Shown here piece after piece: positions 6,299 to 39,897 of a stretch of 44,350 bases of DNA. This DNA is from a virus. The position numbers were made by a program, and so were the translations under genes. Position 1 is the first letter of the stretch. Every line of letters begins with the position of its first letter. Location of the stretch: the UHGV virus genome UHGV-0187309; one strand, 5' to 3'. A model generated the notes under the pieces. That model did not search any database. It was not told the origin of the DNA and saw only the letters and a program-made list of their open reading frames with translations.

Positions 6299-6311
6299 TA
6301 ACGGCATTTTC

Positions 6312-6946: not shown

Positions 6947-7669
6947 ATGGAAAACGCAAATGTTCAGAATGCTGCCGCTATCACCGATAAGACCACCCTC
7001 GGCGAACTGCTTGCAATGCTTGACCTCGCTGATAAGGCAGGCAAGATGCCGACACCGAGAGAACTGTTTGAGACTGCCGGTTCGCCGATAGCCGATATGA
7101 ATGGCTGCACTCTCTTCAGCAACGGCTTCGCCATCTATCAGAATGTCACTGGGCGCACTGTTGTCTGGCTGCCGTACTGCAAGAGCTTCACCTATTACTT
7201 CGGCAAGCTCCGTGATTCCGAGAAAGACACGCTGACAGAGACCTATGAGCTGCCGGATGGATTTCTGGAAACACAGCCGTGGGTGATCGCAGTAACACTG
7301 ATCGGCGACCATCGTGTGGAGGCAAACAGCATGAACCGCACCGGCAGCCGCAAGGATACCACAGATTATGACAGCGCCGATAACGGCGATAAAGACGGTG
7401 ATGCAGAGGAGGCTTTGGCAGATCCGTATCGCAGGGCATTCAACTGGTATGACGGACGCATGGGCGAGAATCCGCAGGATGCCGTGGAGCGCAGAGAGAC
7501 ACGCGAGGAGATGCTTGCAGACATGACGGACAAGCAGCGTGAAGCCTTTATTATGTACTTCAGGGATGGTATGACGCAGGAAGAGATTGCTTCATATATA
7601 GGGGTAAGCCGTGATTCCATAAATGACAGGCTTGAAGGTGCTTTGAAAAAAGCAAAAAAATATTTTTAG
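6947..7669 (+). CDS. sigma-70 region-4-like HTH protein (possible phage sigma/transcription factor)
   Basis: Start at Met36 of the track ORF (AAAGGAA RBS). C-terminus TDKQREAFIMYFRDGMTQEEIASYIGVSRDSINDRLEGALKKAKK resembles sigma-70 region 4. N-terminal 190 aa unrecognised. Confidence 0.55.
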   Translation: MENANVQNAAAITDKTTLGELLAMLDLADKAGKMPTPRELFETAGSPIADMNGCTLFSNGFAIYQNVTGRTVVWLPYCKSFTYYFGKLRDSEKDTLTETYELPDGFLETQPWVIAVTLIGDHRVEANSMNRTGSRKDTTDYDSADNGDKDGDAEEALADPYRRAFNWYDGRMGENPQDAVERRETREEMLADMTDKQREAFIMYFRDGMTQEEIASYIGVSRDSINDRLEGALKKAKKYF

Positions 7670-7759
7670 GATACCCACAAAAAGACCTCTCCCACGACAG
7701 TATATGAGAGGGCTTGAAAAGAAACCAAACCGCAAGCGGCTGCAAAGCCCTCGCAGCCG
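7669..7759 (+). promoter_or_regulatory. copy 1 of a two-copy structured element (box + conserved-loop hairpin + second hairpin)
   Basis: GGATACCCACAAAA, then CCTCTC-ccacgacagtatat-GAGAGG, then CAAACC..AAGCGG and CGGCTGC/GCAGCCG (7737..7759). The first 44 nt are 40/44 identical to 21496..21539. Confidence 0.6.
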
Positions 7760-7806
7760 AACCATTATTACATCGGTCGAAAGACCTGAACAGAAAGGAA
7801 ATGCTT

Positions 7807-8169
7807 ATGCCTATGGAAAACAGAGTCCCGAAAAACCGCTACAACGGCGGTGCCGCAACCGATGCCGACAAGCAGGACAAGCCCGATGTGCTGAAGATGA
7901 TCGAAACGGCAATGGACAAGCGTGCGGCGGGCATCGCACAGACGGTCACGGATATGTTCCGTTTCATGTCGATGGCATCTGCCATGCTCCCGAATATGGA
8001 GATGGATGTCGGTGTGTTCCGTCTGAAGATCGACGATGACGGCATCTTTTTCGAGATCAACCATCCGTTCCGCAAGCGCAAGCAGCGTGATATCTCCAAT
8101 GACTGCTGTGCCGAGGAGCCGGACAACTATGATGATGACGAGGAGGGACTGATTTATGACGGAGACTGA
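7807..8169 (+). CDS. hypothetical protein (acidic C-terminus)
   Basis: ORF-track frame. ATG 7807 lies 6 nt after AAAGGAA; alternative ATGs at 7801 and 7813. Confidence 0.55.
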   Translation: MPMENRVPKNRYNGGAATDADKQDKPDVLKMIETAMDKRAAGIAQTVTDMFRFMSMASAMLPNMEMDVGVFRLKIDDDGIFFEINHPFRKRKQRDISNDCCAEEPDNYDDDEEGLIYDGD

Positions 8170-8650
8170 AAAGAAATTCCCTGTGCCGGGACCGCTTCCC
8201 GTAGACGCAAAGAAGCTGATCGATGGGCTTGGCACGATCTTCGGCGGCGTGATCCAGCTTCTGGCAGCAATGGAGCCGAACATGGCAAAGGAGCTGGCGG
8301 ACATGGCGATCAACGGTGTGCCAAAGGAGACTGCGCCGGAGGAAATCAATCCGGACGATTTCGAGGAGATCATCACCGCTGACGATCTGCCGTGGGATAC
8401 AGAGCCGGAGCAGCCCGAAGAGCCGAAACCTGCGGAAAAGCCCAAACCGAAGAAGGCGGCAAAGAGGGCGGAGCCTGCATCGGAGCTGACCGCTGATGAC
8501 CTCATCCGCGTGGTGACGCAGAAGATCAAGCAGAACCGTGCCAACAAGGACAAAGTGCTGGCGCTGCTGAAATCCTACGGTGCGGCAAAAGTCAGCGATA
8601 TACCTGCGGACAAGTACGAAGCGTTTCTCACTGACCTGTCGCAGCTCTGA
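8156..8650 (+). CDS. hypothetical protein (Pro/Glu/Lys-rich linker)
   Basis: 164 aa, GAGGAGGG RBS. Overlaps the upstream gene by 14 nt, consistent with translational coupling. Confidence 0.65.
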   Translation: MTETEKKFPVPGPLPVDAKKLIDGLGTIFGGVIQLLAAMEPNMAKELADMAINGVPKETAPEEINPDDFEEIITADDLPWDTEPEQPEEPKPAEKPKPKKAAKRAEPASELTADDLIRVVTQKIKQNRANKDKVLALLKSYGAAKVSDIPADKYEAFLTDLSQL

Positions 8651-8664
8651 TCGGAGGTGGCACG

Positions 8665-9912
8665 ATGCCGGATGTTCATGCACTTCTGAGTGCATCCAGT
8701 TCCAAGCAATGGCTTCACTGTCCGCCGTCCGTCCGCCTGCAGGAGAACTTTCCGAACGAGAGCTCCGTGTATGCCGCCGAGGGAACATTCGCTCATGAGG
8801 TCTGCGAGTACAAGGTCCGCAAGTATCTGAAGGAGCGTGTGAAACGTCCGCAGTCCGAGGAATATGACACCGAGGAAATCGAGCAGATCACAGATGTGTA
8901 TGCGGAGTTCGTGATCTCCATCATTGAGCAGATGAAGGAGAACGGCTGTGAGTCGCTTGCTTTTGTTGAGGAGCGTGTGGACTACAGCCACATTGCCCCT
9001 TCCGGCTTTGGCACGGCAGATATGCTCATCATCGGTAAGGACGAGCAGGGACGCGGAATCCTTCATGTATGCGATTTCAAGACGGGTGCAGGCGTGTTTG
9101 TGGATGCAGACCACAACAGCCAGATGATGCTCTATGCGATCGGAGCTTTAGCCGCCTACGGCTTTTTGTATGATATTGAGATCGTGCGTATGAGCATCAT
9201 TCAGCCTCGTCTGGATAATATCAGCACATTCGAGTGCAGCAGAGCCGAGCTTGAGGAATGGGGCGAGAGCATCAAGCCCATTGCGAAACTTGCCTACGAG
9301 GGCAAGGGCGAACAAAGCCCCGGCGACTGGTGTCGGTTCTGCCGTGCAAAGCCTGTTTGCAAAGCGTGTGCCAATGAAGCACTGGCACTCTGCCGTGAGG
9401 ATTTCCTTGACCTCGATGCCGGAGCATTCGATGATACTGCGGAGGAAAGCGATATGACCGCACCCTACGAAGCGGATATACAGACTGCCGTATTCAAGCA
9501 GCCGGGACTGATTCCTATCAGCGAACTTGCGGAGATCCTGCCGACTCTGAACCGCATCAGCTCTTGGATCGAGGCGGTATTCGCATTCGTATCCTCCGAG
9601 GCGATCAATCACGGTGTACCGATTCCCGGCTATAAGGTGGTCGAAGGGCGCAGCAAGCGTGTATTCACAGATACAAAAGCTGTGGTCGATACCGCTGTTC
9701 AGAACGGGTACACCGACCTTTACAAGCAGACGCTCATCACGCTGACGGAATTTGAAAAGATGATGGGCAAGAAAAAGTTCAACGAGCTGCTCGGTGAGTA
9801 TGTCGCCAAGCCACCCGGAAAGCTGGCACTTGTGCCGGAGAGCGATCCGAGAGAACCCGTTGATCTCACAACACCCGGTCAGGAATTTGAAGTTCTCTCT
9901 GATGATGAGTGA
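8665..9912 (+). CDS. DUF2800-type PD-(D/E)XK nuclease with Cys cluster
   Basis: N-terminus LSASSSKQWLHCPPSVRLQE...AAEGTFAHE. DFK core (HVCDFKTG). CRFCRAKPVCKAC cluster. Canonical position upstream of DUF2815 and the DNA polymerase. Confidence 0.8.
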   Translation: MPDVHALLSASSSKQWLHCPPSVRLQENFPNESSVYAAEGTFAHEVCEYKVRKYLKERVKRPQSEEYDTEEIEQITDVYAEFVISIIEQMKENGCESLAFVEERVDYSHIAPSGFGTADMLIIGKDEQGRGILHVCDFKTGAGVFVDADHNSQMMLYAIGALAAYGFLYDIEIVRMSIIQPRLDNISTFECSRAELEEWGESIKPIAKLAYEGKGEQSPGDWCRFCRAKPVCKACANEALALCREDFLDLDAGAFDDTAEESDMTAPYEADIQTAVFKQPGLIPISELAEILPTLNRISSWIEAVFAFVSSEAINHGVPIPGYKVVEGRSKRVFTDTKAVVDTAVQNGYTDLYKQTLITLTEFEKMMGKKKFNELLGEYVAKPPGKLALVPESDPREPVDLTTPGQEFEVLSDDE

Positions 9913-9985
9913 GGATCATACAATAATGCCGCAATTATTCTGTTTGGTGAATACGCAAAATTGAATGAAATATAGGAGGTATACT

Positions 9986-10561
9986 ATGGCAAACACAACA
10001 CCCGCGACTAAAGTGGTTATTCCCTGTCGCATTTCTTTTGCGAACATCTGGGAGCCAAAATCAATTAATGGCAGCGAAGAGAAGTATTCCGTTTCCCTAC
10101 TGATCCCGAAGGATGACAAGGCAACGCTCGCCAAGATCAAGAAGGCAATTGAGGCGGCAAAGGAAGCGGCGAAGGAGAAGAAGTGGGGCGGCAAGATCCC
10201 GCCGAACCTCAAGCTGCCGATGCATGACGGCGACATCGACCGTCCTGATGACGAGAACTATGCCGGTCACTTCTTCTTCAATGCCACGAGCAAGGATGCA
10301 CCGCAGATCGTTGACCGCCATGTGCAGCCGATTCTCGATCCGATGGAGTGCGGCAGCGGTGACTATTGCAATGTCAGCGTGAACTTCTACGGTTTTGCAG
10401 CATCCGGCAACAAGGGCATCGCAGCAGGACTCCAGAACATCCAGCTTGTCCGCCACGGTGAGCGTCTTGCGGGCAGACCGACCGCAGCATCCGACTTCGT
10501 TGAGGTCGAGGGCGATGACACGGATGATCTCGCAGACGATGATCTGGATTTCCTGAACTGA
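9986..10561 (+). CDS. DUF2815-type phage ssDNA-binding protein
   Basis: AGGAGG RBS. ATKVVIPCRISFANIWEPKS...EKYSVSLLIPKDDKATLAKIKKAIEAAKE. Acidic C-terminal tail DDLADDDLDFLN. Confidence 0.75.
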   Translation: MANTTPATKVVIPCRISFANIWEPKSINGSEEKYSVSLLIPKDDKATLAKIKKAIEAAKEAAKEKKWGGKIPPNLKLPMHDGDIDRPDDENYAGHFFFNATSKDAPQIVDRHVQPILDPMECGSGDYCNVSVNFYGFAASGNKGIAAGLQNIQLVRHGERLAGRPTAASDFVEVEGDDTDDLADDDLDFLN

Positions 10562-10601
10562 CGCATAAGGGAGGCTTGCCTCCCTGTACATACACAAACA
10601 G

Positions 10602-13487
10602 GTGGTGATTTTATTGAGCAGACGTGTACTTTCCATCGACTTAGAGACCTATTCGGATGTAGACCTCCCGAACTGCGGTGTGTACCGCTATGTTGAGGGA
10701 GATTTCCATATCCTGCTGTTCGCATATGCATTTGACGATGAGGAGACAAAATGCGTGGATATGGCCTGCGGGGAGCAGCTCCCGGCAGAGGTCGTGGATG
10801 CGCTGCAGGATGACAGTATTATCAAATCGGCATGGAACGCACAGTTTGAGCGTACCTGCCTTTCAAAATATCTCGGTACGCAGATTTCTCCGGACTCGTG
10901 GCAATGCACGATGGTATGGGCGGCATCGCTTTCACTTCCGCTGAAGCTGGCAACGGCTGCACAGGCACTGAAAACTGCACAGCAGAAGGACGCTGTCGGT
11001 GAGCGTCTTATCCGTTATTTCTCTCTGCCCTGTAAGCCCACCAAAGCAAACGGCGGCAGAACAAGAAATCTGCCGGAACACGCCCCCGAAGACTGGAAGC
11101 TGTTCAAAAGCTACTGCATACAGGACGTGGAAACCGAGCGGGATATCCGCCGCAGGCTTGAAAAGTTCCCCCTGCTCCCGCAGGAATGGGACTACTACCA
11201 CATGGATCAGCGGATCAATGATCGCGGTATCCTGATCGACAAAGAGCTTGTGCAGCAGGCTATTATCTGCAATATGGCAATGTCCGAAGAAATGACAAAA
11301 CGTGCATACGCTCTGACAGGACTTGAAAATCCGAATTCCGTATCACAGCTCAAGGGATGGCTTGAGGAGCGTGGCATTGAGGTGGATTCCCTCGGCAAAA
11401 AGAATGTCGCTTCTCTTATCACAGACCTCGACAGGCACAGCGCAGACGGTGAGGCTCTGGATATGATGAAGCTGCGGTTGCAGATGGCAAAGTCCTCTGT
11501 GAAAAAGTATCAGGCGGCAGAGAGATACATCTGTCAGGACGGCAGGGCGCACGGACTGTTTCAGTTTTCCGGAGCTCAGCGAACACAGCGCTGGTGTCTT
11601 ACCGGCGATCATGAAATACTGACAGATAAAGGCTGGCTCAGGCTTGATAATTGGCAGGGCGGTAAGATTGCTTGTTGGAATCCTAATCAGGAAATGGTCT
11701 CGTTCCAGAAAGCGAACGTATTGTGCTTTGAATATGACGGTCCTATCTACCGCTATGAGGACAAACGGATCGATCAGATCAGCACGCCGGATCACAAAAT
11801 GCGTGTAAAGAAACGGTATAACGGCGAGTGGACGGATGACACTGTTGGCAATATGGAAAAGTATCGTCCTTCTATTCCGTTTACCGGACGCAGACAAACG
11901 ATGCCCGGCTTGGAGCACGCAGAACTGAGGGTACTGGTGATGACGCAGGCTGACGGCAGCTATAAAGAAGATGGAATGCTCTGCTTCCATTTCAAGAAGA
12001 AAAGGAAAATAGAACGGTGCAAACATCTGCTCAGACAGGCGGGCATTTATTTCACAGTGAATGAATGCAGGACAGATGGAACAACGCAGATCAAGATTCC
12101 TTCCCGTGAGCAGCCGATGTATCTAAGAATGTTTCATAACAAGACATTTGGAATGTGGCTTCTCGATGAAAGCCCGGATGTTTTCTTTGATGAGCTTCGG
12201 TATTGGGACGGATCGCAAAGCGCCAAAAACAGTATCCAATATACCACAACGAACAAAGTGAATGCCGATATTGTTCAGGCTTTTGCTCATACAAGTGGTC
12301 GCTGTGCAAAAATGAAAACGGTCATCCGGGATAAAGAACACCCGAATTGGAGCGATGCATACTATCTCGATATATGGCTCACTCCGAAAAACTGTCATGA
12401 AATCAGAGTGAAGCCGACTATCTCGCAATTCAGCGGCAAAATATACTGTGCTGAAACCCCAACCGGATACTTCCTTGTAAGACGTAATGGTAAAGTGTGG
12501 GTAACAGGAAACAGCGGGCGCGGCATTCAATTACAGAACCTGCCGCAGAACCACATCTCTACCCTCGATGAAGCAAGAGAACTTGTCAAAATGGGCTGCT
12601 TTGACATGATCGAAGCACTGTACGGCAATACGCCGGATATCCTGTCACAGCTTATCCGCACGATGCTCATTCCGAAGGACGGCTGTGAATTTATCGTGGC
12701 AGACTTCTCCGCCATTGAAGCGAGAGTACTTGCGTGGCTTGCCGGAGAACAGTGGCGGCTCGATGCCTTCAAGCGTGGCGAGGATATTTACTGTGCATCC
12801 GCATCGCAAATGTTCGGTGTTCCGGTCGTGAAGCACGGCATCAATGGAGAACTGCGGCAGAAAGGCAAGGTCGCTGAGCTTGCCTGTGGTTACGGAGGTG
12901 GCAGCGGTGCGCTGATCTCTATGGGTGCGCTGGATATGGGACTGAAAGAGGATGAACTTCCCGACATCATTTCAAGCTGGCGCGATGCAAACCCGGAGAT
13001 CGTGAAATTCTGGTATGCCGTGGAGAAAGCGGCGATCGAAACAGTCAAGGACCACGCGGAAAGAACGGTCGGCAGGATCGGTTTTCAGTTCTCTGCAAAT
13101 ACACTGTGGATCGTGCTGCCGTCCGGGCGCAGACTTGCCTACATCAAGCCGAGGTTACAGCCGAACCGTTTCGGGCGTATGGCGCTGACCTTTGAAGGAC
13201 TCGGTGCAAACAACAAATGGACGCGCGGTGAGACATACAGCGGCAAGCTGACGGAGAACATCACACAGGCGACCGCCCGTGACCTGCTTGCAGAGGCAAT
13301 GCACCGAATGGAGCTTGCGGGACTTGACATAGTCGGTCATGTGCATGATGAGGTCATTTTGGAAGTGCCGAAAAGACAATATACGGTCGATGATGTGTGC
13401 AATATCATGAATCAAAATCCGAGATGGGCAGACGGTCTGCCCTTATCATCTGCCGGATATACCGGCAATTACTACTTCAAAGACTGA
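10602..13487 (+). CDS. family A DNA polymerase (3'-5' exo + pol) interrupted by an intein
   Basis: Exo motif LSIDLETYS. Pol motif A IVADFSAIEARVLAWLAG, motif B RQKGKVAELACGYGGG, motif C GHVHDEVILEV. The real start may be TTG 10614 (AGGTGGTGA RBS). Confidence 0.9.
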   Translation: MVILLSRRVLSIDLETYSDVDLPNCGVYRYVEGDFHILLFAYAFDDEETKCVDMACGEQLPAEVVDALQDDSIIKSAWNAQFERTCLSKYLGTQISPDSWQCTMVWAASLSLPLKLATAAQALKTAQQKDAVGERLIRYFSLPCKPTKANGGRTRNLPEHAPEDWKLFKSYCIQDVETERDIRRRLEKFPLLPQEWDYYHMDQRINDRGILIDKELVQQAIICNMAMSEEMTKRAYALTGLENPNSVSQLKGWLEERGIEVDSLGKKNVASLITDLDRHSADGEALDMMKLRLQMAKSSVKKYQAAERYICQDGRAHGLFQFSGAQRTQRWCLTGDHEILTDKGWLRLDNWQGGKIACWNPNQEMVSFQKANVLCFEYDGPIYRYEDKRIDQISTPDHKMRVKKRYNGEWTDDTVGNMEKYRPSIPFTGRRQTMPGLEHAELRVLVMTQADGSYKEDGMLCFHFKKKRKIERCKHLLRQAGIYFTVNECRTDGTTQIKIPSREQPMYLRMFHNKTFGMWLLDESPDVFFDELRYWDGSQSAKNSIQYTTTNKVNADIVQAFAHTSGRCAKMKTVIRDKEHPNWSDAYYLDIWLTPKNCHEIRVKPTISQFSGKIYCAETPTGYFLVRRNGKVWVTGNSGRGIQLQNLPQNHISTLDEARELVKMGCFDMIEALYGNTPDILSQLIRTMLIPKDGCEFIVADFSAIEARVLAWLAGEQWRLDAFKRGEDIYCASASQMFGVPVVKHGINGELRQKGKVAELACGYGGGSGALISMGALDMGLKEDELPDIISSWRDANPEIVKFWYAVEKAAIETVKDHAERTVGRIGFQFSANTLWIVLPSGRRLAYIKPRLQPNRFGRMALTFEGLGANNKWTRGETYSGKLTENITQATARDLLAEAMHRMELAGLDIVGHVHDEVILEVPKRQYTVDDVCNIMNQNPRWADGLPLSSAGYTGNYYFKD
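11595..12512 (+). mobile_element. 306-aa intein with LAGLIDADG-like homing endonuclease domain inside the DNA polymerase
   Basis: Extein junctions RTQRW|CLTGDHEILTDKGW ... GKVWVTGN|SGRGIQLQNLPQN. Block B STPDHKM. DOD-like motifs LRVLVMTQADGSY and FFDELRYWDGSQ. Removing it restores the contiguous RW-SGRGIQLQNLP polymerase motif. Confidence 0.8.
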
Positions 13488-13500
13488 GGAGGATATTCTT

Positions 13501-14550
13501 ATGAAACAGGGACGAGCATTACCGGAAGTGCTGACAGAGCTTCAGAGACAGAATGCAGCAAAGCAGGATTATATTGGCACGGCAGAGGCGTTCCGTCTGG
13601 ACGAGGACGGCAGCACCTTCCGGATCGGTGACGATCACAGCTTTGGTACCACACAGCTTTTCCATCGTCAGGTGGCATCGGCACTCGGCATTCCGGCGAA
13701 GTATTACGACATGATGCAGAAACAGAAGCCTGACCTTCTGGCAGACAATGTGAATGCATGGTTCAGTGACAAGGGCAGCAGCTACATGGTGCGTACCCTT
13801 GATTACGGCAGCGGACAGGTTGCGAGAGCCTTTCTGTCTGACCGTTACCGCCGTATCGATAACCTTGAAATTGCCTCGGCTGTTCTCCCGATTTTCGCCG
13901 GACAGGAAGGCATGGAGGTCATGAGCTGCGAGGTCACAGAGAATAAGCTGTATCTGAAGATCGTCAATCACCGTCTGGAAATGGCGTGTGTCGGTGACCG
14001 TGTGCAGGCAGGTGTCATCATCTCCAATTCGGAGGTTGGACTCGGTGCTGTGTCTGTTCAGCCGCTTGTCTATACACTTGCCTGCACCAACGGCATGGTG
14101 GTCAACAGTATGGGCGAACGCCGTACCCATGTCGGCAGGGCGGCGAAAGCACTGGAAGACAGCTTCAATATCTACACAAATGAAACCCTCGAAGCCGAAG
14201 ATAAGGCATTCATGCTGAAGCTCCGTGATACCACAATGGCAGCAATTGAAGAGGCTCGTTTCGCACAGATCATCGGTGTGTTGGAGCAGAGCCACGGCGC
14301 AAAGATCACAGGACGTGTGCAGGATGTCATCGAACTGACCGGCAAGGCGTATGACCTGAATCAGTCGGAACAGGACAGCATTCTGAACTATCTCATCAAG
14401 GGCGGCGATCTTTCCCTCTATGGTCTGAGCAATGCCATCACACGCGCTTCGCAGGATGTAGATTCCTACGACAGAGCCACTGCGTTAGAGGGCATCGGCT
14501 GGCAGGTGGCGACCATGCCTGCAAATCAGTGGAAGGAGATCAACGCATGA
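13501..14550 (+). CDS. DUF932-like phage/plasmid protein
   Basis: 349 aa, GAGGAGG RBS. IISNSEVGLGAVSVQPLVYTLACTNGMVV resembles the NSxxGxxA...CxNGM core of DUF932. Function unknown. Confidence 0.5.
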   Translation: MKQGRALPEVLTELQRQNAAKQDYIGTAEAFRLDEDGSTFRIGDDHSFGTTQLFHRQVASALGIPAKYYDMMQKQKPDLLADNVNAWFSDKGSSYMVRTLDYGSGQVARAFLSDRYRRIDNLEIASAVLPIFAGQEGMEVMSCEVTENKLYLKIVNHRLEMACVGDRVQAGVIISNSEVGLGAVSVQPLVYTLACTNGMVVNSMGERRTHVGRAAKALEDSFNIYTNETLEAEDKAFMLKLRDTTMAAIEEARFAQIIGVLEQSHGAKITGRVQDVIELTGKAYDLNQSEQDSILNYLIKGGDLSLYGLSNAITRASQDVDSYDRATALEGIGWQVATMPANQWKEINA

Positions 14551-14780: not shown

Positions 14781-15217
14781 GAGAATATGTTGTCGAAAAC
14801 GAGTTTGTCAAGGCGGTAAAAGCGGCAGGCGGTGTGGCATACAAGCTGACATCGCAGACCGCAAACGGACTGCCGGACAGACTCGTTCTGTTCCCGGCGG
14901 CAAAGACGATTTTCGTGGAGCTGAAAGCACCGGGGAAAATGATGCGACCGTTGCAGCGTAAAAGACGGTATCAGCTTATGAAACTCGGCTTTCCGGTGCT
15001 GTGCATTGACAGGATGCCGCAGATCAAGCCGTTCATATCAGCAGCATTGTCATGGACACCCGGTGAGCCGTTCCCGGAAGGCATCGGTGCGAAGATACCC
15101 GATCTGGAAAGGGCAACGCTGCCGACGGATATGGATAACTTCGGGGAAACGCTTGAACCCATCGATCCAGACAATCTGATAGAGTTTTATGAAATAGAGG
15201 ACGGTGATGATGCATGA
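14777..15217 (+). CDS. VRR-NUC domain nuclease
   Basis: EFVKAVKAAGGVAYKLTSQTANGLPDRLVLFPAAKTIFVELKAPGKMMRPLQ. Start uncertain: TTG 14777 overlaps the previous stop, and the track ORF begins at 14690. Confidence 0.75.
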   Translation: MREYVVENEFVKAVKAAGGVAYKLTSQTANGLPDRLVLFPAAKTIFVELKAPGKMMRPLQRKRRYQLMKLGFPVLCIDRMPQIKPFISAALSWTPGEPFPEGIGAKIPDLERATLPTDMDNFGETLEPIDPDNLIEFYEIEDGDDA

Positions 15218-15711
15218 TTAACCCTAAACGCAGAGCTGTGAGAAAAAGCTGCTCATACTGCGGAACTGTCTTTACCTATGTCGGAAGTCATGGTACAAGA
15301 AATAAGCATTTTTTCTGTTCTCATGAATGCTATATTGCCTTTAAGACAAAGAAAGCAGAAGTGAAATGCGATTGGTGCGGCAAATCAATGCTGAAAAAAC
15401 GCTCTGATATATGGAGAACGGATCACAATTTCTGCTGCCCCGAATGCTGTTTACTGTATAGGCAAAAGCAAGGCGAAACTTCATGGAATCATCGTGTGAA
15501 TGGAATAACCGTACACAGGGGCATTTTGGAGAAGAAGCTCGGACGAGAACTGCGTGCGGATGAAGAAGTACACCTTATCGATGGTAACCATTTCAATAAT
15601 GATCCGGACAATCTCATCGCCCTTTCCAAATCGGAACACGCCAAAATTCATTCTTCTTGGAAAGCGAGGGACGAGTATGGAAAATACGTTAAAACGCAGT
15701 CAGATTCATGA
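15214..15711 (+). CDS. free-standing HNH homing-type endonuclease with N-terminal Cys-rich zinc-finger region
   Basis: HLIDGNHFNNDPDNLIALSKSEHAKIH. Multiple CxxC/CxxxC pairs N-terminally. Overlaps both neighbours (ATGA at 15214; 35 nt into the SNF2 gene). Confidence 0.8.
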   Translation: MINPKRRAVRKSCSYCGTVFTYVGSHGTRNKHFFCSHECYIAFKTKKAEVKCDWCGKSMLKKRSDIWRTDHNFCCPECCLLYRQKQGETSWNHRVNGITVHRGILEKKLGRELRADEEVHLIDGNHFNNDPDNLIALSKSEHAKIHSSWKARDEYGKYVKTQSDS

Positions 15712-17059
15712 ATACCAAAAATACTGTGTTGACTTTATTAAGTCTCATCCCGTATCAGCACTCTTTTTGGATTGCGGACTTGGAAAGACGATCATTTCAT
15801 TGACTGCAATATATGATCTAATGTTTGATGAGCTGAAGGTATCTAAAGTTCTTGTAATTGCCCCTCTAAGAGTGACAAATGTCTGGAAAGCGGAGGTTCA
15901 GAAATGGAGTCATCTGCAAGATGTTGATGTTGCGATAGTAGTCGGAACTGTAAAACAGCGGATTGCTGCGATTAACAGTAACGCTCTTGTTTACGCTGTC
16001 AACCGTGAAAATGTGAAGTGGCTCGTAGAGTATTACGAGAAGAACGGTCTTCGCTGGGATTACGATATGATCGTCATTGACGAGCTGAGTTCCTTCAAAA
16101 ACTACCAGTCACAGCGGTTCAAATGGTTGCGTAAGGTTCGGCCTTTCGTGAAGCGCTGGGTAGGATTGACAGGAACGCCGACTTCCAACGGTCTCATGGA
16201 CCTGTGGGCAGAGATCGGTATCCTTGACGGCGGTGAGCGGCTCGGACGGTTTATAGGCAGATTTCGTGAAAGCTATTTCAAGCCTGCGTCCATGAATCCG
16301 TCAACCGGTGTTGTTTTCAGCTACACCCCACGTCCCGTCGCAGAGGAGCAGATCTATAACAAAATCTCCGACATTACGATTTCCATGAAGGCACTGGATT
16401 ATCTGGATATGCCGGAATGTATCTTCGTCAATCATGAGGTCGAGATGAATGCAGCAGAGCGAAAACTATACGATCAGCTGAAACAGGATCTTATCATTCC
16501 GCTTGAGGACGGAGATATCGATGCTGCCAACGCTGCCTCTCTCTCCAACAAGCTGCTCCAGATGGCTAACGGCGCGGTCTATGACGAAAACAAGGAAGCC
16601 CGAATCATTCACAGCCGGAAACTGGAAATGCTGGAAGACCTGATCGAAGCCGCAAACGGACAGCCTGTTCTGGTCGGCTACTGGTTCAAGCATGACCGCA
16701 CTCGCATCATGGAGCATCTAACCGCCTGCGGTTACAGCCCTCGTGATATAAAGGATTCCGCCGACATCACAGACTGGAACGCCGGAAACATCCCGGTCGC
16801 TCTTATACACCCCGCTTCGGCAGGACACGGTCTGAACATTCAGTCCGGTGGCCATATCATGATCTGGTTCGGTCTGACATGGAGCTTAGAGCTTTATCAG
16901 CAGACAAATGCGCGTTTGTGGAGGCAGGGACAGAAGCACACTGTCACGATCCACCACATCGTAACAAAAGACAGTGTCGATGAGGATGTGCTTGCTGCTT
17001 TGGCCAATAAGGATGTAACACAGGAGAAATTGATCGCCGCTGTCAAGGCGAGATTATAG
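15677..17059 (+). CDS. SNF2/DEAD-like superfamily 2 helicase
   Basis: Start at Met42 of the track ORF (GAGGGA RBS). Motif I LDCGLGKT, motif II VIDELSSF, HPASAGHGLNIQ, motif VI QQTNARLWRQGQ. Confidence 0.88.
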   Translation: MENTLKRSQIHEYQKYCVDFIKSHPVSALFLDCGLGKTIISLTAIYDLMFDELKVSKVLVIAPLRVTNVWKAEVQKWSHLQDVDVAIVVGTVKQRIAAINSNALVYAVNRENVKWLVEYYEKNGLRWDYDMIVIDELSSFKNYQSQRFKWLRKVRPFVKRWVGLTGTPTSNGLMDLWAEIGILDGGERLGRFIGRFRESYFKPASMNPSTGVVFSYTPRPVAEEQIYNKISDITISMKALDYLDMPECIFVNHEVEMNAAERKLYDQLKQDLIIPLEDGDIDAANAASLSNKLLQMANGAVYDENKEARIIHSRKLEMLEDLIEAANGQPVLVGYWFKHDRTRIMEHLTACGYSPRDIKDSADITDWNAGNIPVALIHPASAGHGLNIQSGGHIMIWFGLTWSLELYQQTNARLWRQGQKHTVTIHHIVTKDSVDEDVLAALANKDVTQEKLIAAVKARL

Positions 17060-17081
17060 GATCATACTCTCCGTATGATCC
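17059..17081 (+). other. perfect 9-bp stem-loop directly after the SNF2 stop (no U-tract)
   Basis: GGATCATAC tctcc GTATGATCC. Confidence 0.4.
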
Positions 17082-17144
17082 GCACTGAAAAGACGACAAA
17101 GCGGCGACAAAACGGTTACACCGCACTCTATGGAGGTGAAAACT

Positions 17145-17648
17145 ATGGCGCGTAAGAACAAACGCCTGAAAACAGAATACCACAGAGGTCTCGGTTTTGA
17201 TCCGCGAAAGTATATGACTTCCTACTCCCACCAAACTCGCTGTGAATCAATTCCGACTCCCGACCGTGCTCCAAAGCGCGGCGATATCTGGTTTGCGCGG
17301 CTCGGCACACATCCGAATTCCAGTGTGCAGGGCGGCACCCGTCCCGTTATCATCATTTCTAACGACCTCGGCAACGAACACGCTGACACCGTCAATGTTG
17401 TGCCGATGACCAGACACCTGAAAAAGCCGGAGCTGCCTTGTCACACTCCGCTTTCTCCCGGCAGCATTACCGATAGCAGACAGCCGCTTGAACTGTCAAT
17501 GGTGCTGGCGGAGCAGCTCACAACTGTCAGCAAGAACGCACTTCGCTATTATGCAGGTCATATTTCCGATGACGAAGCTATGAACCGCATCGAAACCGCT
17601 GTTATTGCGCAGCTCAGTCTTGAAAGGAGATATTCCAAATGCCTGTGA
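17145..17648 (+). CDS. PemK/MazF-family endoribonuclease-like toxin with ~45-aa N-terminal extension
   Basis: GGAGGTG RBS before ATG 17145. PKRGDIWFARLG...GGTRPVIIISNDLGNEHADTVNVVPMT is the PemK/MazF core. No antitoxin-like ORF upstream. Confidence 0.72.
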   Translation: MARKNKRLKTEYHRGLGFDPRKYMTSYSHQTRCESIPTPDRAPKRGDIWFARLGTHPNSSVQGGTRPVIIISNDLGNEHADTVNVVPMTRHLKKPELPCHTPLSPGSITDSRQPLELSMVLAEQLTTVSKNALRYYAGHISDDEAMNRIETAVIAQLSLERRYSKCL

Positions 17649-20068
17649 ATTTTGTCAATATCCCAGATGTTCTGAAGCAGACCGCTTCTTTCTGTGTCTG
17701 GAAGCTGGAAAAGAGATCCGGCAGACCGACCAAAGTACCGTATAACCCTCGCACCGGTGCAATGGCGAGAACCAACGATCCGTCTACCTTTGCAGACTTC
17801 AATACAGCAATGAAATCCTATGCCATCGGCGGATGGGACGGTATCGGCTATCGTGTCAGCGAAGGCATCGGTGCAATCGACATCGACCACTGCATCCGTG
17901 AGGACGGCAGTCTCAATGATGTTGCAGCATCCATTCTCGGTATCTTCCCCGATGCGTACTTTGAGCGCAGCCCCTCTGGTACCGGCTTGCGCGGCTTTTT
18001 TCGCCTTTCTCCTGATTTCGCCTACGATAAGACTGTGTACTACATCAACAACCGAAAGCACGGTCTGGAGGTCTATCTTCCCGGTGTGACGAACCGCTTT
18101 GTGACTGTTACAGGAGATATGTTCCGCAATGGTGCAGTTACCCGAAATGACGGTTCCCTGCGCACACTACTTGATACCTTCATGAAGCGCAGCACCCGTG
18201 TATCTTCCAAGACTGTCGAGCCTGTGTCCTATCTCGATGATGACGGTGTTATCGCTCACGCATCGGCATCTGAATCCGGCGACAAGTTCAAAGCACTGTA
18301 TGCCGGTAACTGGGAGGAAGGCTACGATTCCCAGTCCGATGCAGATATGGCGCTTGTGTCTATCCTTGCATTCTGGTGCGGTAATGTCGAGGAGCAGATC
18401 GACCGTATCTTCCGAACTTCCGGTCTGATGCGTGATAAGTGGGATCGTATGACCGGAGACAGAACTTACGGACAGATCACGATCCGCAATGCTGTCGCTA
18501 CCAATTCCGCTGTCTATACACCGATTCAGGATTCTACGGCAGAAGATGACTTTGACGATATCGAGGGCGATGCGGAAAATGAGCAGCTTATGTTTGAGCC
18601 TGATCTCACCCATGTTTCCCTGACGCTGGAAGAAATGCAGCCGCACACGAATCCCCGCTATCAGCGTGACGAGATCGGCATCGGATATGCATTTGCGGAT
18701 TATTATAAGCCCATCGCTCGTTTTGACCGTGAGCGCGGCATCTGGTATGTCTTTGACGGGAAGGTGTGGCAGCCGGACGAGAATGCGCTTGCCGTGGCGG
18801 AGCTTGCAAAGCGTCTGGCAGACAGGCTGTATACCTTTGCCCTTCAGATCAAGGATGAGGACACACGCAACCGCTATATCAAGCGAGTGCAGAAGCTGCA
18901 AATGCGGAAGAACCGCCGCACCATGATCGAAGATGCGAAATCCGTGTATCCAGTGCCGCACGCTATCTTTGACCGCAATACCTACCTTTTCAACTGTCAG
19001 AACGGGACACTGAACCTCACCACAGGTGAATTCCGTCCGCACGATCCGGCAGACTTTCTCACCATGATGTCCGGTGTCACTTATGATCCGAACGCCACCT
19101 GTCCACGATGGGAGCAGTTCATTTCCGAAGTTATGTGTAATGATGCTGACCTCGCATTATACTTGCAAAAAGCCCTCGGATATGCGCTTACCGGCGACAC
19201 ATCACTGGAATGCCTGTTCATCCTCTACGGTGCAACATCCAGAAACGGCAAAGGCACCACAATGGAGACCTTTCTCAAAATCATGGGCGACTACGGCAAA
19301 ACCTCCAATCCGGAGATGCTGTCTACGAAATTCGGCAACACCAATGCTTCCGGACCGTCCGAAGAGATCGCCCGGCTTGCGGGTGTCCGTTTTGTCAATA
19401 TCTCCGAGCCGGAGAAGAAGATCACCTTCAATGCGGCACTGGTAAAGCGTATGACGGGTAATGATACACTGAATGCACGTTTCCTGCATGAGAATTCCTT
19501 CGACTTCCGACCGAATTTCAAGATCTTCATCAATACGAATTACAAACCGTCCGTTTCTGATATGACACTGTTTTACTCCAACCGTCTGAAGCTCATTCCG
19601 TTCAAACGCCATTTTGAGGAGCATGAGCAGGACAAAGGTCTGAAAGCATTTTTCAGTACGTATGTCTGCCTCTCTGCCATCTTCAACTGGTGCTATGAAG
19701 GATATAAGCGGTTCCGTTCCGAAGATCTGGAAGATCCGGCTGCTGTATCTCAAGCAACCAAGGAGTATCAGGAGGAGTCTGACCGTATCGGGCAGTTTGT
19801 GGATGCGTGGCTCGAAGAAGGCGAAGCATTTGAAGTCCGTACCTCTGCGGCATATAAGCTGTACGGTGAATGGTGCGATAAATATGGCTACCGCAAGGAA
19901 AACAGCACCAACTTCAATAACGCGATCCAGCGTTTCTTCCCCATCGTGCGTAAGCGCCCGAACGATACTAAGGGTGCGCAGAAAACAACGATGCTTGTGG
20001 GCTGTCGTTTTCTGGAGCATGAAAACGGCGAAGCTGACGAACCAGAGGAGTTTGCAGCTTTGGAGTAA
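17639..20068 (+). CDS. bifunctional prim-pol / D5_N / P4-type primase-helicase
   Basis: N-terminal prim-pol (FCVWKLEKRSGRPTKVPYNP...GAIDIDHC). C-terminal NTPase with Walker A YGATSRNGKGT. Starts 10 nt inside the MazF-like gene. Confidence 0.88.
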   Translation: MPVNFVNIPDVLKQTASFCVWKLEKRSGRPTKVPYNPRTGAMARTNDPSTFADFNTAMKSYAIGGWDGIGYRVSEGIGAIDIDHCIREDGSLNDVAASILGIFPDAYFERSPSGTGLRGFFRLSPDFAYDKTVYYINNRKHGLEVYLPGVTNRFVTVTGDMFRNGAVTRNDGSLRTLLDTFMKRSTRVSSKTVEPVSYLDDDGVIAHASASESGDKFKALYAGNWEEGYDSQSDADMALVSILAFWCGNVEEQIDRIFRTSGLMRDKWDRMTGDRTYGQITIRNAVATNSAVYTPIQDSTAEDDFDDIEGDAENEQLMFEPDLTHVSLTLEEMQPHTNPRYQRDEIGIGYAFADYYKPIARFDRERGIWYVFDGKVWQPDENALAVAELAKRLADRLYTFALQIKDEDTRNRYIKRVQKLQMRKNRRTMIEDAKSVYPVPHAIFDRNTYLFNCQNGTLNLTTGEFRPHDPADFLTMMSGVTYDPNATCPRWEQFISEVMCNDADLALYLQKALGYALTGDTSLECLFILYGATSRNGKGTTMETFLKIMGDYGKTSNPEMLSTKFGNTNASGPSEEIARLAGVRFVNISEPEKKITFNAALVKRMTGNDTLNARFLHENSFDFRPNFKIFINTNYKPSVSDMTLFYSNRLKLIPFKRHFEEHEQDKGLKAFFSTYVCLSAIFNWCYEGYKRFRSEDLEDPAAVSQATKEYQEESDRIGQFVDAWLEEGEAFEVRTSAAYKLYGEWCDKYGYRKENSTNFNNAIQRFFPIVRKRPNDTKGAQKTTMLVGCRFLEHENGEADEPEEFAALE

Positions 20069-20107
20069 AAGTAGACTTTTCTCCGTATTTACGCTGTTTT
20101 CCGCAGT

Positions 20108-20196
20108 TGGGGCAGCGTGGGGCAAGTTTTTTCGGTGGTTATTATTATTACTTCTCTTTATATATATTACTATTTTTACTTGCCCCTACTTGCCCC
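20108..20196. repeat. ori-like element: inverted pairs of TGGGGCA(AG) iterons flanking a 52-bp AT-rich core
   Basis: TGGGGCA 20108..20114 and TGGGGCAAG 20118..20126. CTTGCCCC 20179..20186 and 20189..20196. Core 20127..20178 is ttttttcggtggttattattattacttctctttatatatattactattttta. Confidence 0.35.
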
Positions 20197-20374
20197 AAAT
20201 AAATAAAAACAATAGAAAAGATAAGAAGAATAGAGGATTTTCACTGATTTGAACCATTACCCATTTTGCACTGTTTTGAACCTTGCCCGATGCTGTCACT
20301 GACAAAGAGTGTGTAAGCGACAAAGCGTGGCAAGGTCAAAATCCAATAAACAATCATACAGGAGGAACACGAAT

Positions 20375-21469
20375 ATGAGAATCATTACTTCAGAACAGGT
20401 ATCCGCAGGACATCCCGACAAGATCTGTGACCAAATCGCGGATGCCATCGTGACAGACTGCCTTCAGCATGACCGCAGCAGTCGTGTTGCGATAGAGTGT
20501 CTTTTCAAGAACCGCTGTCTTGTGATCGCCGGTGAGCTGACCAGTACCCATGAGCCGGACTACAAGGCTCTGGTGCAGCAGGTGTTCGACCGTATCAACA
20601 ACGGCGGAGCTGAGAACAGCGATGCGGGACTTGACTACAAGCTGGACTTCACCGCCGATGATCTGGACATTGCGATTCTGGTCGATCACCAGAGCAATGA
20701 CATTGCGCTCGGTGTGAATGTCGGCGGTGCAGGAGATCAGGGTATGATGTACGGCTATGCGACCAACGAAACGCCGGAGATGCTCCCGATCCCCTTCGTG
20801 CTGGCTACCAGATTTCTGGAACTGCTGAAAGCCTACCCCTGCCGTATGCTGAAAGCCGATGCAAAGGCACAGGTCAGCTATGACTATGACAGCGGTCGCA
20901 TTACCACCTTCCTCTGCTCGGTGCAGCATACACACGATGTGGATGTTGAGGACTTCAAGCCCATCATCGAAAAGCTGATGGTGAGAACGGCAACCGAATA
21001 CGGGCTGAATACAGACTTTGCAAAGCTCGTCAACCCGACCGGCAGATTTGTCATAGGCAGTTCCTTTGCGGACTGCGGCGTTACCGGACGCAAGCTCGCC
21101 TGCGATACCTATGGCGGTATCGGGCATATCGGCGGCGGTGCAATGTCCGGCAAAGATCCGTCTAAGGTTGACCGCAGCGGCGCATATGCAGCAAGAAAAA
21201 TCGCAAGGGATATCGTCAGCGCCGGATATTCAGACAAGGCAGAGGTGCAGATCGCATACGCCATCGGTGTGGCAGAGCCCGTATCCGTGTATGTAGAGAC
21301 TTTTGGCACGGAGCATCAGGATACGGAGTTCATCAACCAGTATGTTCGTGAGAATTATGACCTCACGCCGAGGGGAATCATCGAAGGGCTGCATCTGCTC
21401 GATGTGGACTATAACGCCATTTCCGCATACGGACACTTCGGAAAACAGAACCTTCCGTGGGAACTATAA
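20375..21469 (+). CDS. metK: S-adenosylmethionine synthetase
   Basis: Start at Met23 of the track ORF (AGGAGGA RBS). ITSEQVSAGHPDKICDQIADAI, GAGDQGMMYGYA, GGGAMSGKDPSKVDRSGAY. Confidence 0.92.
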   Translation: MRIITSEQVSAGHPDKICDQIADAIVTDCLQHDRSSRVAIECLFKNRCLVIAGELTSTHEPDYKALVQQVFDRINNGGAENSDAGLDYKLDFTADDLDIAILVDHQSNDIALGVNVGGAGDQGMMYGYATNETPEMLPIPFVLATRFLELLKAYPCRMLKADAKAQVSYDYDSGRITTFLCSVQHTHDVDVEDFKPIIEKLMVRTATEYGLNTDFAKLVNPTGRFVIGSSFADCGVTGRKLACDTYGGIGHIGGGAMSGKDPSKVDRSGAYAARKIARDIVSAGYSDKAEVQIAYAIGVAEPVSVYVETFGTEHQDTEFINQYVRENYDLTPRGIIEGLHLLDVDYNAISAYGHFGKQNLPWEL

Positions 21470-21495
21470 TAAATTTTTTGAAATTTTTTTTGATT

Positions 21496-21589
21496 GGATA
21501 CCCACAAAATGCCCTCTCCCACGACAGTATATGAGGGGCGTTGTTCAGACCGACCACAAACACACTACAAACCAAGCGGGACTGACCGC
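21496..21589 (+). promoter_or_regulatory. copy 2 of the two-copy structured element
   Basis: GGATACCCACAAAA, then CCTCTC-ccacgacagtatat-GAGGGG (U-A replaced by U.G), then CAAACC.AAGCGG and GCGG/CCGC (21576..21589). Confidence 0.6.
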
Positions 21590-21632
21590 CCCTATCACTA
21601 TGCAACACCACTGTGGAAAGGAGGCAGAGACA

Positions 21633-21992
21633 ATGCCAAGCAGACCAAAAACACCATGCAGACACCCCGGCTGTGCTGCGCTCGTACCTTATGGCACCAA
21701 GTATTGTGACAAGCACCGTTCTCTCCATCCGGAGGACACACGCTCCGCAGGCAGTCGAGGCTATGGCACCACATGGAACAAGACCCGCAAGCGTTACCTT
21801 GAGACGCATCCGCTGTGCGTGGAGTGCATGAAGCAAGGGCGCTATATCAAGGCGACCGATGTCGATCACATCATGCCGCACCGAGGAGACAATGTTCTCT
21901 TCTGGGATCAGAGCAACTGGCAGAGCCTCTGCCACCGACACCACAGCATCAAGACCCGAAATGAGGATCACACCCCCGAGTACAAGTACTAA
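21633..21992 (+). CDS. HNH endonuclease
   Basis: Start at the internal ATG with AAAGGAGG RBS. CRHPGC...YCDKH zinc motif. DVDHIMPHRGDNVLFWDQSNWQSLCHRHHSIKT. Confidence 0.85.
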   Translation: MPSRPKTPCRHPGCAALVPYGTKYCDKHRSLHPEDTRSAGSRGYGTTWNKTRKRYLETHPLCVECMKQGRYIKATDVDHIMPHRGDNVLFWDQSNWQSLCHRHHSIKTRNEDHTPEYKY

Positions 21993-22450
21993 ACGCAAGC
22001 CACACTCACTATCGTTGCAGTTCAGGCAGTCTCAGGGGTGTACCTATGGGCGGGGCTGGGGGCTGGGGTTGCCCGCCGGGGCGGGTTCACTTCTCTGTGT
22101 GAAAGCGAACACAAGACCGTCGGCCCCTCTCGTGTGAAAAAACGCGAATTTGCAAGGGCCCCGGTCATTTGGGACCCTGACAGAGATATATTAGCTGTAA
22201 ATGAAATACTGTGCAGAAAACAGAAAACGCAGATTTTTCGTGCTTTTCCATATGCTGCCGTAGGAAACTGCGGCGGCAGGATACATACAGAGTTTCGTTA
22301 CAAAATGCACTGTAAAACGGCGAATTTACGTCAAAAAGCGATAGAATTAGCACATTTTTAGCGCCAAACCGCATTTTACAGTTTTATTCTTGGCGGAGCC
22401 CGTGTGGATACCGAAAACCGCATAAAATCAGAAGTTTCGAGGTGAATCAG

Positions 22451-22756
22451 ATGACAGATTCTCAAAAATATCAAGTACGAATTATGCGGATGCAGGGCAT
22501 TGGATATAAGGCAATAGCAAGGTCGCTGGGCTTGAAAACCAATCAGGTGCAGCTCTTTTGCAAGGCTCACGGTCTTGCAGGAGACAATCATCTGGTCGAT
22601 GTCAACTATCAAATCTGGTGTCAGCAAAACAACCGCTGTCCGGTCTGCGGTGCAAAGGTCACCCAGCCGAGGACAGGACGGCGAAAACGCTTCTGTTCCG
22701 GACGGTGCAGAACAAGATATTATCGTGAAAAACTGGAGGAATCAAAATGCTTGTAA
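22451..22756 (+). CDS. small HTH (sigma-70 r4/resolvase-like) + C-terminal zinc-ribbon protein
   Basis: GAGGTG RBS. RIMRMQGIGYKAIARSLGLKTNQVQLFCKAHGL. CPVCGAKV...RFCSGRCRTRYY. Confidence 0.6.
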   Translation: MTDSQKYQVRIMRMQGIGYKAIARSLGLKTNQVQLFCKAHGLAGDNHLVDVNYQIWCQQNNRCPVCGAKVTQPRTGRRKRFCSGRCRTRYYREKLEESKCL

Positions 22757-26305: not shown

Positions 26306-26306
26306 G

Positions 26307-39866: not shown

Positions 39867-39897
39867 TGCAGATTTTTTGAGAAAAGGAGTGATGCGG

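Follow-up and report, generated by a model that had tools for sequence, protein, structure and literature searches.

SigI-type sigma factors of cellulolytic clostridia keep sigma-2 and have sigma-4, the domain that normally reads the -35 element, replaced by a family-specific domain. The T4 proteins AsiA and MotA are phage factors that alter which -35-region sequence RNA polymerase (RNAP) uses, and Orf7 of Tn916 is a sigma-region-4-like regulator. Use of the -35 region by RNAP is also altered by gp39 of Thermus phage P23-45, a sigma appropriator/remodeller (PMC3950348). Tn916 Orf7 and Orf8 activate their own promoter (PMC5812530), and Bacillus subtilis SigO-RsoA is cited in PMC7826278 as a two-subunit sigma. 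Here, we describe a phage locus that shares features with several of these systems, within a window comprising the whole 44,350-nucleotide stretch of UHGV virus genome UHGV-0187309. A first-pass annotation had singled out two of its proteins, here called protein 1 and protein 2, as carrying sigma-70 region-4-type HTHs with no recognizable region 2.

Protein 1 (6947..7669, plus strand; 240 amino acids, called from its ORF and SD) is an acidic protein (pI 4.6) of prophage origin, with gut and rumen Ruminococcus as hosts. We observe 488 homologs, the best 120 of which are all at least 70% identical to it, and close homologs bear the PGAP label “sigma-70 family RNA polymerase sigma factor.” In the literature searched, the family is not described. 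No isolated phage relatives were recovered by blastn, and tblastn matches covered the sigma-4 part only, on two unannotated faecal contigs. The gene follows repressor and ImmA-like genes and heads the replication module, a position that is conserved.

Homology identifies the C-terminal domain of protein 1 (7478..7666, plus strand) as a sigma region 4 of ECF type (4.1-4.2 HTH); a sigma-70 region-4-type HTH had been proposed for this protein in the earlier annotation. Its last 68 residues, NPE linker motif included, are homologous to ECF sigma in hhalign comparisons, and the NPQ/NPE motif aligns with the sigmaE linker. The homology thus spans the linker end and region 4.1-4.2 of ECF (group 4) sigmas such as Escherichia coli sigmaE (PDB 2H27, its region 4 in complex with -35 DNA); a further likeness is that protein 1 is acidic and that its recognition helix apparently reads a box near -35. 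An acidic linker (approximately residues 137-158, low confidence) leads into a near-invariant segment, DPYRRAFNWYDGRMGENPQDAVERRETREEML (residues 159-190), that extends into the sigma-4 part; the linker and the start of this segment occupy 7355..7477 (plus strand). Column identity peaks over residues 159-190 (0.93, versus 0.79 in the N-terminal domain) and is lowest in the recognition helix (0.38), whose segment SYIGVSRDSINDRLEGA (residues 216-232) is hypervariable across the family.

HTHs of the sigma-4 and LuxR/GerE types have a common fold, and a weak GerE match is found in 31 of 92 members of the family. Along with the precedent of Tn916 Orf7, this would suit a stand-alone activator or repressor/autoregulator, with a sigma-4-derived HTH that takes the class box described below as its operator and makes no sigma-like RNAP contact. 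We consider such a factor unlikely, and protein 1 does not match the profile of a LuxR/GerE regulator, namely, a GerE-type HTH as best match and no sigma linker.

The N-terminal domain (6947..7354, plus strand; approximately residues 1-136) is conserved, acidic (pI 4.55), unannotated, and predicted to be mixed alpha/beta. It is present in 169 clusters at 50% identity, and Pfam, PHROG, and PDB searches with it returned zero matches. AlphaFold places strands at residues 47-101 and a helix at residues 112-128, in a model of medium confidence (block-mean pLDDT of 45-86 across residues 11-120). Protein 1 contains the -35-reading region 4 of sigma-70 family (ECF/group 4) sigmas but not their region 2, responsible for core binding, -10 recognition, and melting, and here the first-pass annotation was correct. 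No Sigma70_r2 match was found in protein 1 of the window or in the 25 most frequent families among the 92 members; PDB profile matches are confined to positions 158 onward, structure superposition on sigmas covers just the C-terminal 50-90 residues, and hhalign against ECF sigma gave no alignment ahead of residue 173. The N-terminal domain is not a sigma region 2, and similarity to sigma-2 or any RNAP-binding fold is not detectable in it. No sigma-70-family sigma is known to function without a sigma-2 fold, which weighs against protein 1 as a specificity factor seated on RNAP like a sigma. Pfam also found no separate sigma-2 partner, with no Sigma70_r2 match in the 30 other ORFs of the window (20 scanned at E ≤0.001 and 10 at E ≤0.1). 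A partner could still be highly divergent or host-encoded.

These features set protein 1 apart from each of the described systems. In contrast to ECF sigmas, it lacks sigma-2, and the ~135 residues at its N terminus make up an alpha/beta domain that is unrelated and unannotated. Set against the general description of SigI, it appears as a mirror image, keeping sigma-4 and replacing sigma-2. AsiA/MotA and gp39 instead bind to region 4 of the host sigma, lack a sigma-4 fold themselves, and resemble protein 1 in neither sequence nor fold. SigO-RsoA likewise includes a sigma-4-bearing polypeptide without its own region 2, but protein 1 has a large conserved N-terminal domain fused to it, and Pfam finds no small sigma-2-like partner among the window ORFs scanned.

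A promoter-like element composed of an A/T tract, a 12-nt class box, and the invariant box CTCCCACGACAGTATATGAGRGG occurs twice on the plus strand. Copy 1 (7640..7716) begins at the stop codon of protein 1, bearing out the earlier placement of the gene directly upstream of it; its A/T tract overlaps the last codons of protein 1, followed by the class box GATACCCACAAAA (7670-7682) and the invariant box CTCCCACGACAGTATATGAGAGG (7689-7711). It precedes the replication operon, and the first gene after it begins at approximately 7807. Copy 2 (21466..21543), 13.8 kb downstream, comprises an A/T tract, the class box GATACCCACAAAA (21497-21509), and the invariant box (21516-21538), and lies ~90 nt upstream of an HNH gene (21630..21992) at the head of an HNH/protein 2/NrdDG/methyltransferase operon. 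The invariant box has only these two occurrences in the window, and the class box by itself is found elsewhere in the window no more often than expected by chance. Across 75 elements, the invariant box is conserved at 90% or more in 22 of 24 positions, and 78 of 80 elements are followed, at a median of ~100 nt, by a same-strand ORF with an SD ahead of it.

Taking TATATG as the -10 puts the class box at approximately -40 to -27 and the A/T tract where an UP element is expected, with the -35 placement conditional on this assumed start site. A sigma-70-consensus promoter scan called neither copy, and TATATG (TATATA in a divergent clade) does not have the last -10 T that the scan demands; canonical TTGCTA-17-TAATAT promoters are present elsewhere in the phage. 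At 23 nt and invariant, the downstream box also differs from the short -10 of ECF promoters, and because it is far longer than a -10, the RNA 5′ end, another protein, or other constraints may act there. Two further candidates were rejected. The GGATACC heptamer as a general site is overrepresented (15 observed versus 2.9 expected), yet most copies are intragenic, the only intergenic ones being at 7669, 21496, and 22406. A T7-type promoter was likewise dismissed: ACGACAGTATATGAGAGG agrees by eye at 10/18 positions with the T7 promoter core ACGACTCACTATAGGGAGA, but no single-subunit RNAP gene is seen in the window.

Over ~90 related loci, the 12-nt box sorts into at least 11 classes, and every class pairs with one recognition-helix sequence of protein 1, for a total of 32 unique helix/box combinations. 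In Ruminococcus flavefaciens 007c (locus L138), for example, helix class CRVSTVHQHM is found with box GATACCGAAAATT; QVGVKHHL is a further helix class, and ATAGTTATATTT and TACCCACAAA are contrasting boxes. Helix distance correlates with box distance (Mantel r of 0.615, with 0 of 5,000 permutations as high), also when N-domain identity is controlled (partial r of 0.63), whereas N-domain distance does not track box distance (r of 0.06). N-domains that are just 49% identical can bear the same helix and box, and others that are 94 to 98% identical can bear different ones. Part of this covariation is co-inheritance, since no more than 100 bp separates the helix from the proximal box, a linkage broken only by distal element copies. 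In the 10 contigs with at least two copies, box identity is 0.88 within a genome versus 0.45 between genomes, and copies kilobases apart in one genome have the same class box. Covariation and distal concordance together are as expected for a sigma-70 family member, in which the region 4 helix sets the cognate -35 element, given the -35 position assumed above. The helix changes in step with the 12-base box of two promoter-like sites, making protein 1 a very likely determinant of promoter specificity and most likely the specificity factor of two phage operons.

The first-pass annotation had described the element as conserved and structured. Its conservation in two copies is confirmed, but hairpin support is weak. 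A CTCTC...GAGAG inverted repeat lies on either side of TATAT, and together with a two-sided change at pair 2 in one sequence and the leading position of the protein 1 gene in the replication module, it could point to an RNA structure or a replication/packaging site rather than a promoter, with covariation arising from mosaic inheritance. However, only three pairs are invariant, pair 4 forms in 69% of elements, outer positions vary uncompensated, and Rfam gave no match at gathering score or at E ≤1. In addition, distal copies kilobases away retain the same box, each element carries a single class box without iterons, and orientation toward the downstream gene is constant, leaving a nonpromoter role highly improbable.

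Our best explanation, tentative and at somewhat less than an even chance, is that protein 1 acts as the specificity factor of a dedicated phage promoter class. It would be seated on RNAP in sigma fashion, with sigma-4 on the beta flap reading the class box, the near-invariant linker along the sigma 3.2/ECF linker path, and the N-terminal domain handling the invariant box, directly or via the polymerase. Upon loss of the prophage repressor, protein 1 may turn on delayed-early or middle transcription. Tn916 Orf7 and Orf8, small regulators of a Firmicutes mobile element, are by description comparable in that they are de-repressed on repressor loss and then activate transcription into downstream modules (PMC5812530), although they come with no described system of covarying boxes. 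Recognition helix and boxes may be swapped among phages as one specificity set, so that co-resident relatives would stay orthogonal. It is rather unlikely, in our estimate, that protein 1 represents a genuine initiation factor of new architecture, in which an unrelated alpha/beta domain in place of the universal sigma-2 recognizes and opens the long invariant box while the ECF-type sigma-4 reads a freely swappable -35 box; if so, the family would offer at least 11 natural orthogonal sigma-4/-35 pairs built on a single unchanging chassis.

Covariation and geometry fit equally well with a sigma-4 surrogate or co-activator, akin to T4 MotA/AsiA or a PhoB-type class II activator. In this scheme, region 2 of host sigma-A would open the TATAT box while the sigma-4 of protein 1 sits at -35 and its N-terminal domain touches sigma-A or RNAP. 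Protein 1 lacks sigma-2, so the host sigma may have to supply melting, and the invariant box does contain a TATAT motif. However, TATATG/TATATA lacks the required last -10 T and the sigma-70 scan calls neither element; the ECF-type linker, NPE motif, and 0.93 conservation suggest that protein 1 itself threads onto RNAP; and no AsiA-like partner was identified. We regard the surrogate as possible but doubtful. The earlier suggestion of an appropriator or co-activator instead of a full sigma is matched by the protein 1 data no better than an unconventional sigma is, but its core idea is upheld for protein 1, which lacks region 2 and would redirect transcription as a -35-type reader, with a helix that covaries with a box near -35 in both promoter-like elements.

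Should protein 1 initiate transcription with no sigma-2 fold, an apparent general rule of the sigma-70 family would be broken and a second solution to promoter opening revealed; if it acts alongside host sigma-A, it would represent a new kind of sigma appropriation, carried out by one protein, in temperate phages of Gram-positive bacteria. Under either reading, the recognition helix and 12-nt box form a natural code with at least 11 classes, carried by scaffolds that are almost identical, which could provide orthogonal transcription parts for anaerobic Firmicutes and would explain how related prophages of one Ruminococcus host might escape cross-activation. The “RNA polymerase sigma factor” XAO13862.1 of Terrisporobacter phage TPDSL_ph1 occupies the same slot (factor, two small ORFs, DUF2800 exonuclease, SSB, and PolA), and Pfam finds only region 4 in it, as in protein 1. 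Its N-terminal 150 residues are, however, dissimilar to protein 1, and the gene is followed by a terminator-like hairpin rather than the promoter-like element. Because a sigma-4-only gene holds this slot in an unrelated phage, the numerous phage genes annotated as “sigma factor” that head DUF2800 replication modules may need re-examination.

Protein 2 (22451..22756, plus strand; 101 amino acids, pI 10.0) is encoded in the second element-headed operon and consists of an N-terminal three-helix HTH (approximately residues 1-44), a helix at residues 49-59, a Cys4 zinc ribbon, and a C-terminal helix. The zinc ribbon had been noted previously and is borne out by C63, C66, C82, and C86. The proposed region-4-type HTH, on the other hand, does not hold: profile and structure searches, which assign protein 1 to sigma region 4, give no sigma-70 region 4 as best match for protein 2, and its top structural match is the DNA-binding domain of GcrA, the Caulobacter sigma-70 cofactor. 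This match is weak (hhalign probability, 38%; limited to GcrA positions 3-59, with no PF07750 match), and the C-terminal sigma-70-interacting domain of GcrA is missing, with the Cys4 ribbon in its place and weak TiaS and YacG similarity at the C terminus. The suggestion that protein 2 redirects RNAP finds no evidence of RNAP contact. Protein 2 is, from its sequence, a basic HTH and zinc-ribbon protein and a putative nucleic-acid binder, not a sigma-4 protein, and grouping it with protein 1 as one class is unjustified. Its possible targets include a conserved CTTGGCGGAGCCCGTGTGGATACC motif, as well as repeated promoters and leaders at 33-39.5 kb.

The ORF at 6947..7669 (+) is real, and its 240-aa product (protein 1) passes the Pfam cut-offs for Sigma70_r4_2 and Sigma70_r4 at residues 188-235; TIGR02937 is also passed, solely via profile positions 96-164. 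In a profile of 92 diverse members, only residues 173-240 align to E. coli sigmaE (its residues 115-185), with a probability of 88%; this alignment takes in NPE, the motif found ahead of region 4 in ECF sigmas. N-terminal of approximately residue 150, neither searches nor model comparison gave a sigma match: Pfam, NCBIfam, PHROG, and single-sequence and profile searches of PDB returned no matches over the N-terminal part, and Sigma70_r2 is absent from the 25 most frequent Pfam families among the 92 members. In the predicted structure, residues 47-101 hold six strands and residues 112-128 form a helix, unlike the sigma-2 helical bundle, and full-length sigma structures superpose on the model over its C-terminal 50-90 residues only. 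The first-pass annotation, which saw a region 4-type HTH but no region 2, was thus right about this protein, and it is on region 2 that protein 1 departs from the sigma-70 family. A small separate family (169 clusters at 50% identity) is delimited by its N-terminal 174 residues; nearly all of these are 220- to 370-aa proteins with region 4 at the end. Protein 1 is an uncharacterised sigma-4 fusion, mislabelled in databases. One family member, P0264 (374 aa), carries the same N-domain followed by a C-terminal region that, by eye, differs from the usual sigma-4 consensus, so the N-domain may be a mobile module.

Protein 1 lies immediately upstream of the first copy of the promoter-like element, a position already noted in the first-pass annotation: copy 1 (7669-7716) starts at the last base of its stop codon. 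Copy 2 (21496-21543) is located about 90 nt 5' of an HNH gene (21630..21992), and no further copy was found in the window. Both consist of an A/T-rich tract (in copy 1, the coding end KKAKKYF plus stop), the box GATACCCACAAAA, six to eight bases, and then CTCCCACGACAGTATATGAGRGG. Across 80 distinct elements gathered from IMG/VR, metagenome and genome loci, 78 are followed by a same-strand, SD-preceded ORF at a median distance of about 100 nt. In the 75 elements of the main type, 22 of the 24 positions of the downstream box reach 90% conservation or more, and overall conservation is absent from the 12- to 14-nt upstream box. Large contigs typically hold two copies, and one 20-kb contig holds four. 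A divergent clade (42-49% identity) has the variant downstream box ...GAAACGCTATATAGTAGAGG, also seen in at least one distal copy of that clade (locus L026). Neither window element satisfies a sigma-70 consensus scan, TATATG lacking the final T that the scan demands; canonical TTGCTA-17-TAATAT promoters are present elsewhere in the same phage. That the element is something other than a promoter we consider highly improbable, since its CTCTC/GAGAG inverted repeat shows only three invariant pairs without consistent compensation, and an Rfam search gave no match.

By far the least conserved part of protein 1 is the recognition segment (residues 216-232), with a mean pairwise column identity of 0.38, versus 0.79 for the N-domain and 0.93 for the segment DPYRRAFNWYDGRMGENPQDAVERRETREEML. 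When the recognition segment of each gene is paired with the box just 3' of that gene, we observe 32 distinct combinations, which fall into 11 or more classes without an exception. Examples from these classes are SRDS(I/V)NDRL with TACCCACAAA, AKMSVNERLRY with ACCCCTTACAAA, NHRAVGFRL with ATACTACCAAAA, QVGVKHHL with ATAGTTATATTT, SRRTLREHL with GACCCGCCATTT, DQTTIRDHL with GATACCCCTAAAA, TKPAVYVRL with GACTTTAACTTT, SQQDIYQT with CATATTGTT, and CRVSTVHQHM with GATACCGAAAATT. Helix and box distances are correlated (Mantel r = 0.615, reached by 0 of 5000 permutations; r = 0.63 once N-domain distance is controlled for), and N-domain and box distances show next to no correlation (r 0.06). Identical helices and boxes occur on N-domains sharing only 49% identity, and differing ones on N-domains that are 94-98% identical. 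Because less than 100 bp separates the codons of the helix from the proximal box, co-inheritance could mimic a functional link, and it is the distal copy that provides the decisive control. Among the 10 contigs with at least two copies, boxes of the same genome have an identity of 0.88, versus 0.45 between genomes; the core 11-12 nt are the same between copies in eight contigs and differ by one base in two. The two copies in the window are 13.8 kb apart. These sequence comparisons show a one-to-one code between the sigma-4 recognition helix and the box of a promoter-like element heading two operons, and strongly support, on comparative grounds, a cognate and modular promoter code for protein 1.

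If TATATG is taken as the -10, the box would span approximately -40 to -27, the canonical -35 position, with the A/T tract at about -54 to -46, the canonical UP position, and protein 1 would act like a -35 reader despite having no region 2. The ECF-type linker and its extreme conservation, the overall acidity of protein 1 (pI 4.6), and the conserved N-domain together with the conserved downstream box favour a polymerase-riding protein over a free DNA-binding regulator. The same features fit less well with a stand-alone regulator, which is unlikely. For a polymerase-riding protein 1, an unconventional sigma is our leading, still tentative, identification; a sigma-4 surrogate working alongside host sigma-A is almost as probable. 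The split sigma SigO-RsoA offers the closest precedent for a sigma-4 protein lacking region 2 (PMC7826278), but here no sigma-2-like partner was found by Pfam among the 30 other ORFs of the window. Tn916 Orf7/Orf8, encoded on a different mobile element of Firmicutes, is functionally analogous (PMC5812530). In Terrisporobacter phage TPDSL_ph1 (2733-3356 of locus L158), XAO13862.1, annotated "RNA polymerase sigma factor," occupies the syntenic slot of protein 1; Pfam likewise finds region 4 only, yet the N-terminus is unrelated. Sigma-4-only factors heading DUF2800-type replication modules may be widespread.

The second ORF that the first-pass annotation had credited with a sigma-4-type HTH, at 22451..22756 (+), is also real and encodes a 101-aa protein of pI 10.0 (protein 2). 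Its small family (52 clusters) has no Pfam domain and matches PHROG 2308, of unknown function. The confident model (pLDDT 91.7) comprises a three-helix HTH and one further helix, followed by a Cys4 ribbon and a C-terminal helix. By hhalign, the HTH is in register with 28 genuine GcrA proteins at a probability of only 38%; Pfam GcrA does not match protein 2, which is missing the sigma-binding domain of GcrA, and the ribbon has weak similarity to the TiaS and YacG ribbons. Protein 2 is therefore predicted to be a basic nucleic-acid-binding protein, not a sigma-4 and separate from protein 1, and is ordinary by present evidence. The two-protein claim was accordingly half right, holding for protein 1, where it was understated, and not for protein 2. 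From the position of the protein 2 gene 3' of element copy 2, we infer that its expression may depend on protein 1.

Throughout this phage lineage, the protein 2 family is found in one constant gene order: MetK, HNH, a gap (about 460 nt), protein 2, a small ORF, NrdD, NrdG and ParB-methyltransferase. The noncoding gap (21993-22450, +) is conserved in three related loci (L023, L026, and L027), as judged over the aligned 180 nt nearest the protein 2 homologues. Invariant blocks are GTTTCGTTACA, AAAACGGCGA, and CTTGGCG(G/A)AGCCCGTGTGGAT(A/G)CC, the last about 35-60 nt 5' of the start codon. An Rfam search of the gap gave no match, and a GC-rich stretch lies at about 22040-22090.

The window is a temperate phage or prophage of Ruminococcus/Oscillospiraceae. 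An S24/LexA-type repressor (3065..3955, minus strand) is followed by an ImmA/IrrE-like gene (4370..6298), protein 1, and a DUF2800/Enc34-SSB/PolA/SNF2/MazF/D5-primase replication block ahead of MetK; beyond NrdD/NrdG and ParB-methyltransferase come more methyltransferases, an accessory region, and the small and large terminases (39877..43037). Genomes of R. flavefaciens and Oscillospiraceae contain close relatives, as do metagenomes from gut, rumen and digesters, and a human-gut contig (L064) is identical throughout protein 1 and the element; blastn and tblastn found no protein 1 in isolated phages. Two terminator-like hairpins (6312-6331 and 6361-6381) directly follow the ImmA-like gene, within an untranslated region of about 650 nt 5' of protein 1 (6299-6946, +) that likewise has no called gene in the 91%-related prophage L001.

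The family A DNA polymerase has 961 aa here (10602-13487, +) versus 651 aa in L001 (13626-15581), with Pfam coverage limited to residues 683-814, which suggests a large insertion, e.g., a putative intein or homing element. An HNH_3 ORF (15214-15711) overlaps the start of the SNF2 gene. The large terminase (40371-43037, +; 888 aa) matches terminase profiles in two separated stretches and may thus also contain an intein or other insertion. The MazF/PemK toxin gene within the replication operon, SAM synthetase, anaerobic ribonucleotide reductase NrdD/NrdG, a ParB-methyltransferase fusion plus two further methyltransferases, amidoligase and gamma-glutamyl cyclotransferase (17130-17648, 20309-21469, 23386-25991, 26250-31145, and 32090-35173) together suggest that the phage invests heavily in DNA modification. 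Over the whole window, the heptamer GGATACC has 15 copies versus 2.9 expected, mostly within coding sequence. Finally, six units with the common leader core ACAACGGAA(G/C)GG lie at 33326-39472 (+). The five inspected share the order promoter-like region, leader (T)GTGACACAACGGAAGGGC-loop-GCCC, GGAGG and ATG, with two upstream subtypes, TTTAGCCGCTTG(C/A)TAT and TTTTGCACATAGGCGTGGACTT, and a canonical sigma-70-type TTGCTA-17-TAATAT in at least two. The sixth leader core, at 39461, lies 5' of the small terminase and may be part of a late promoter.
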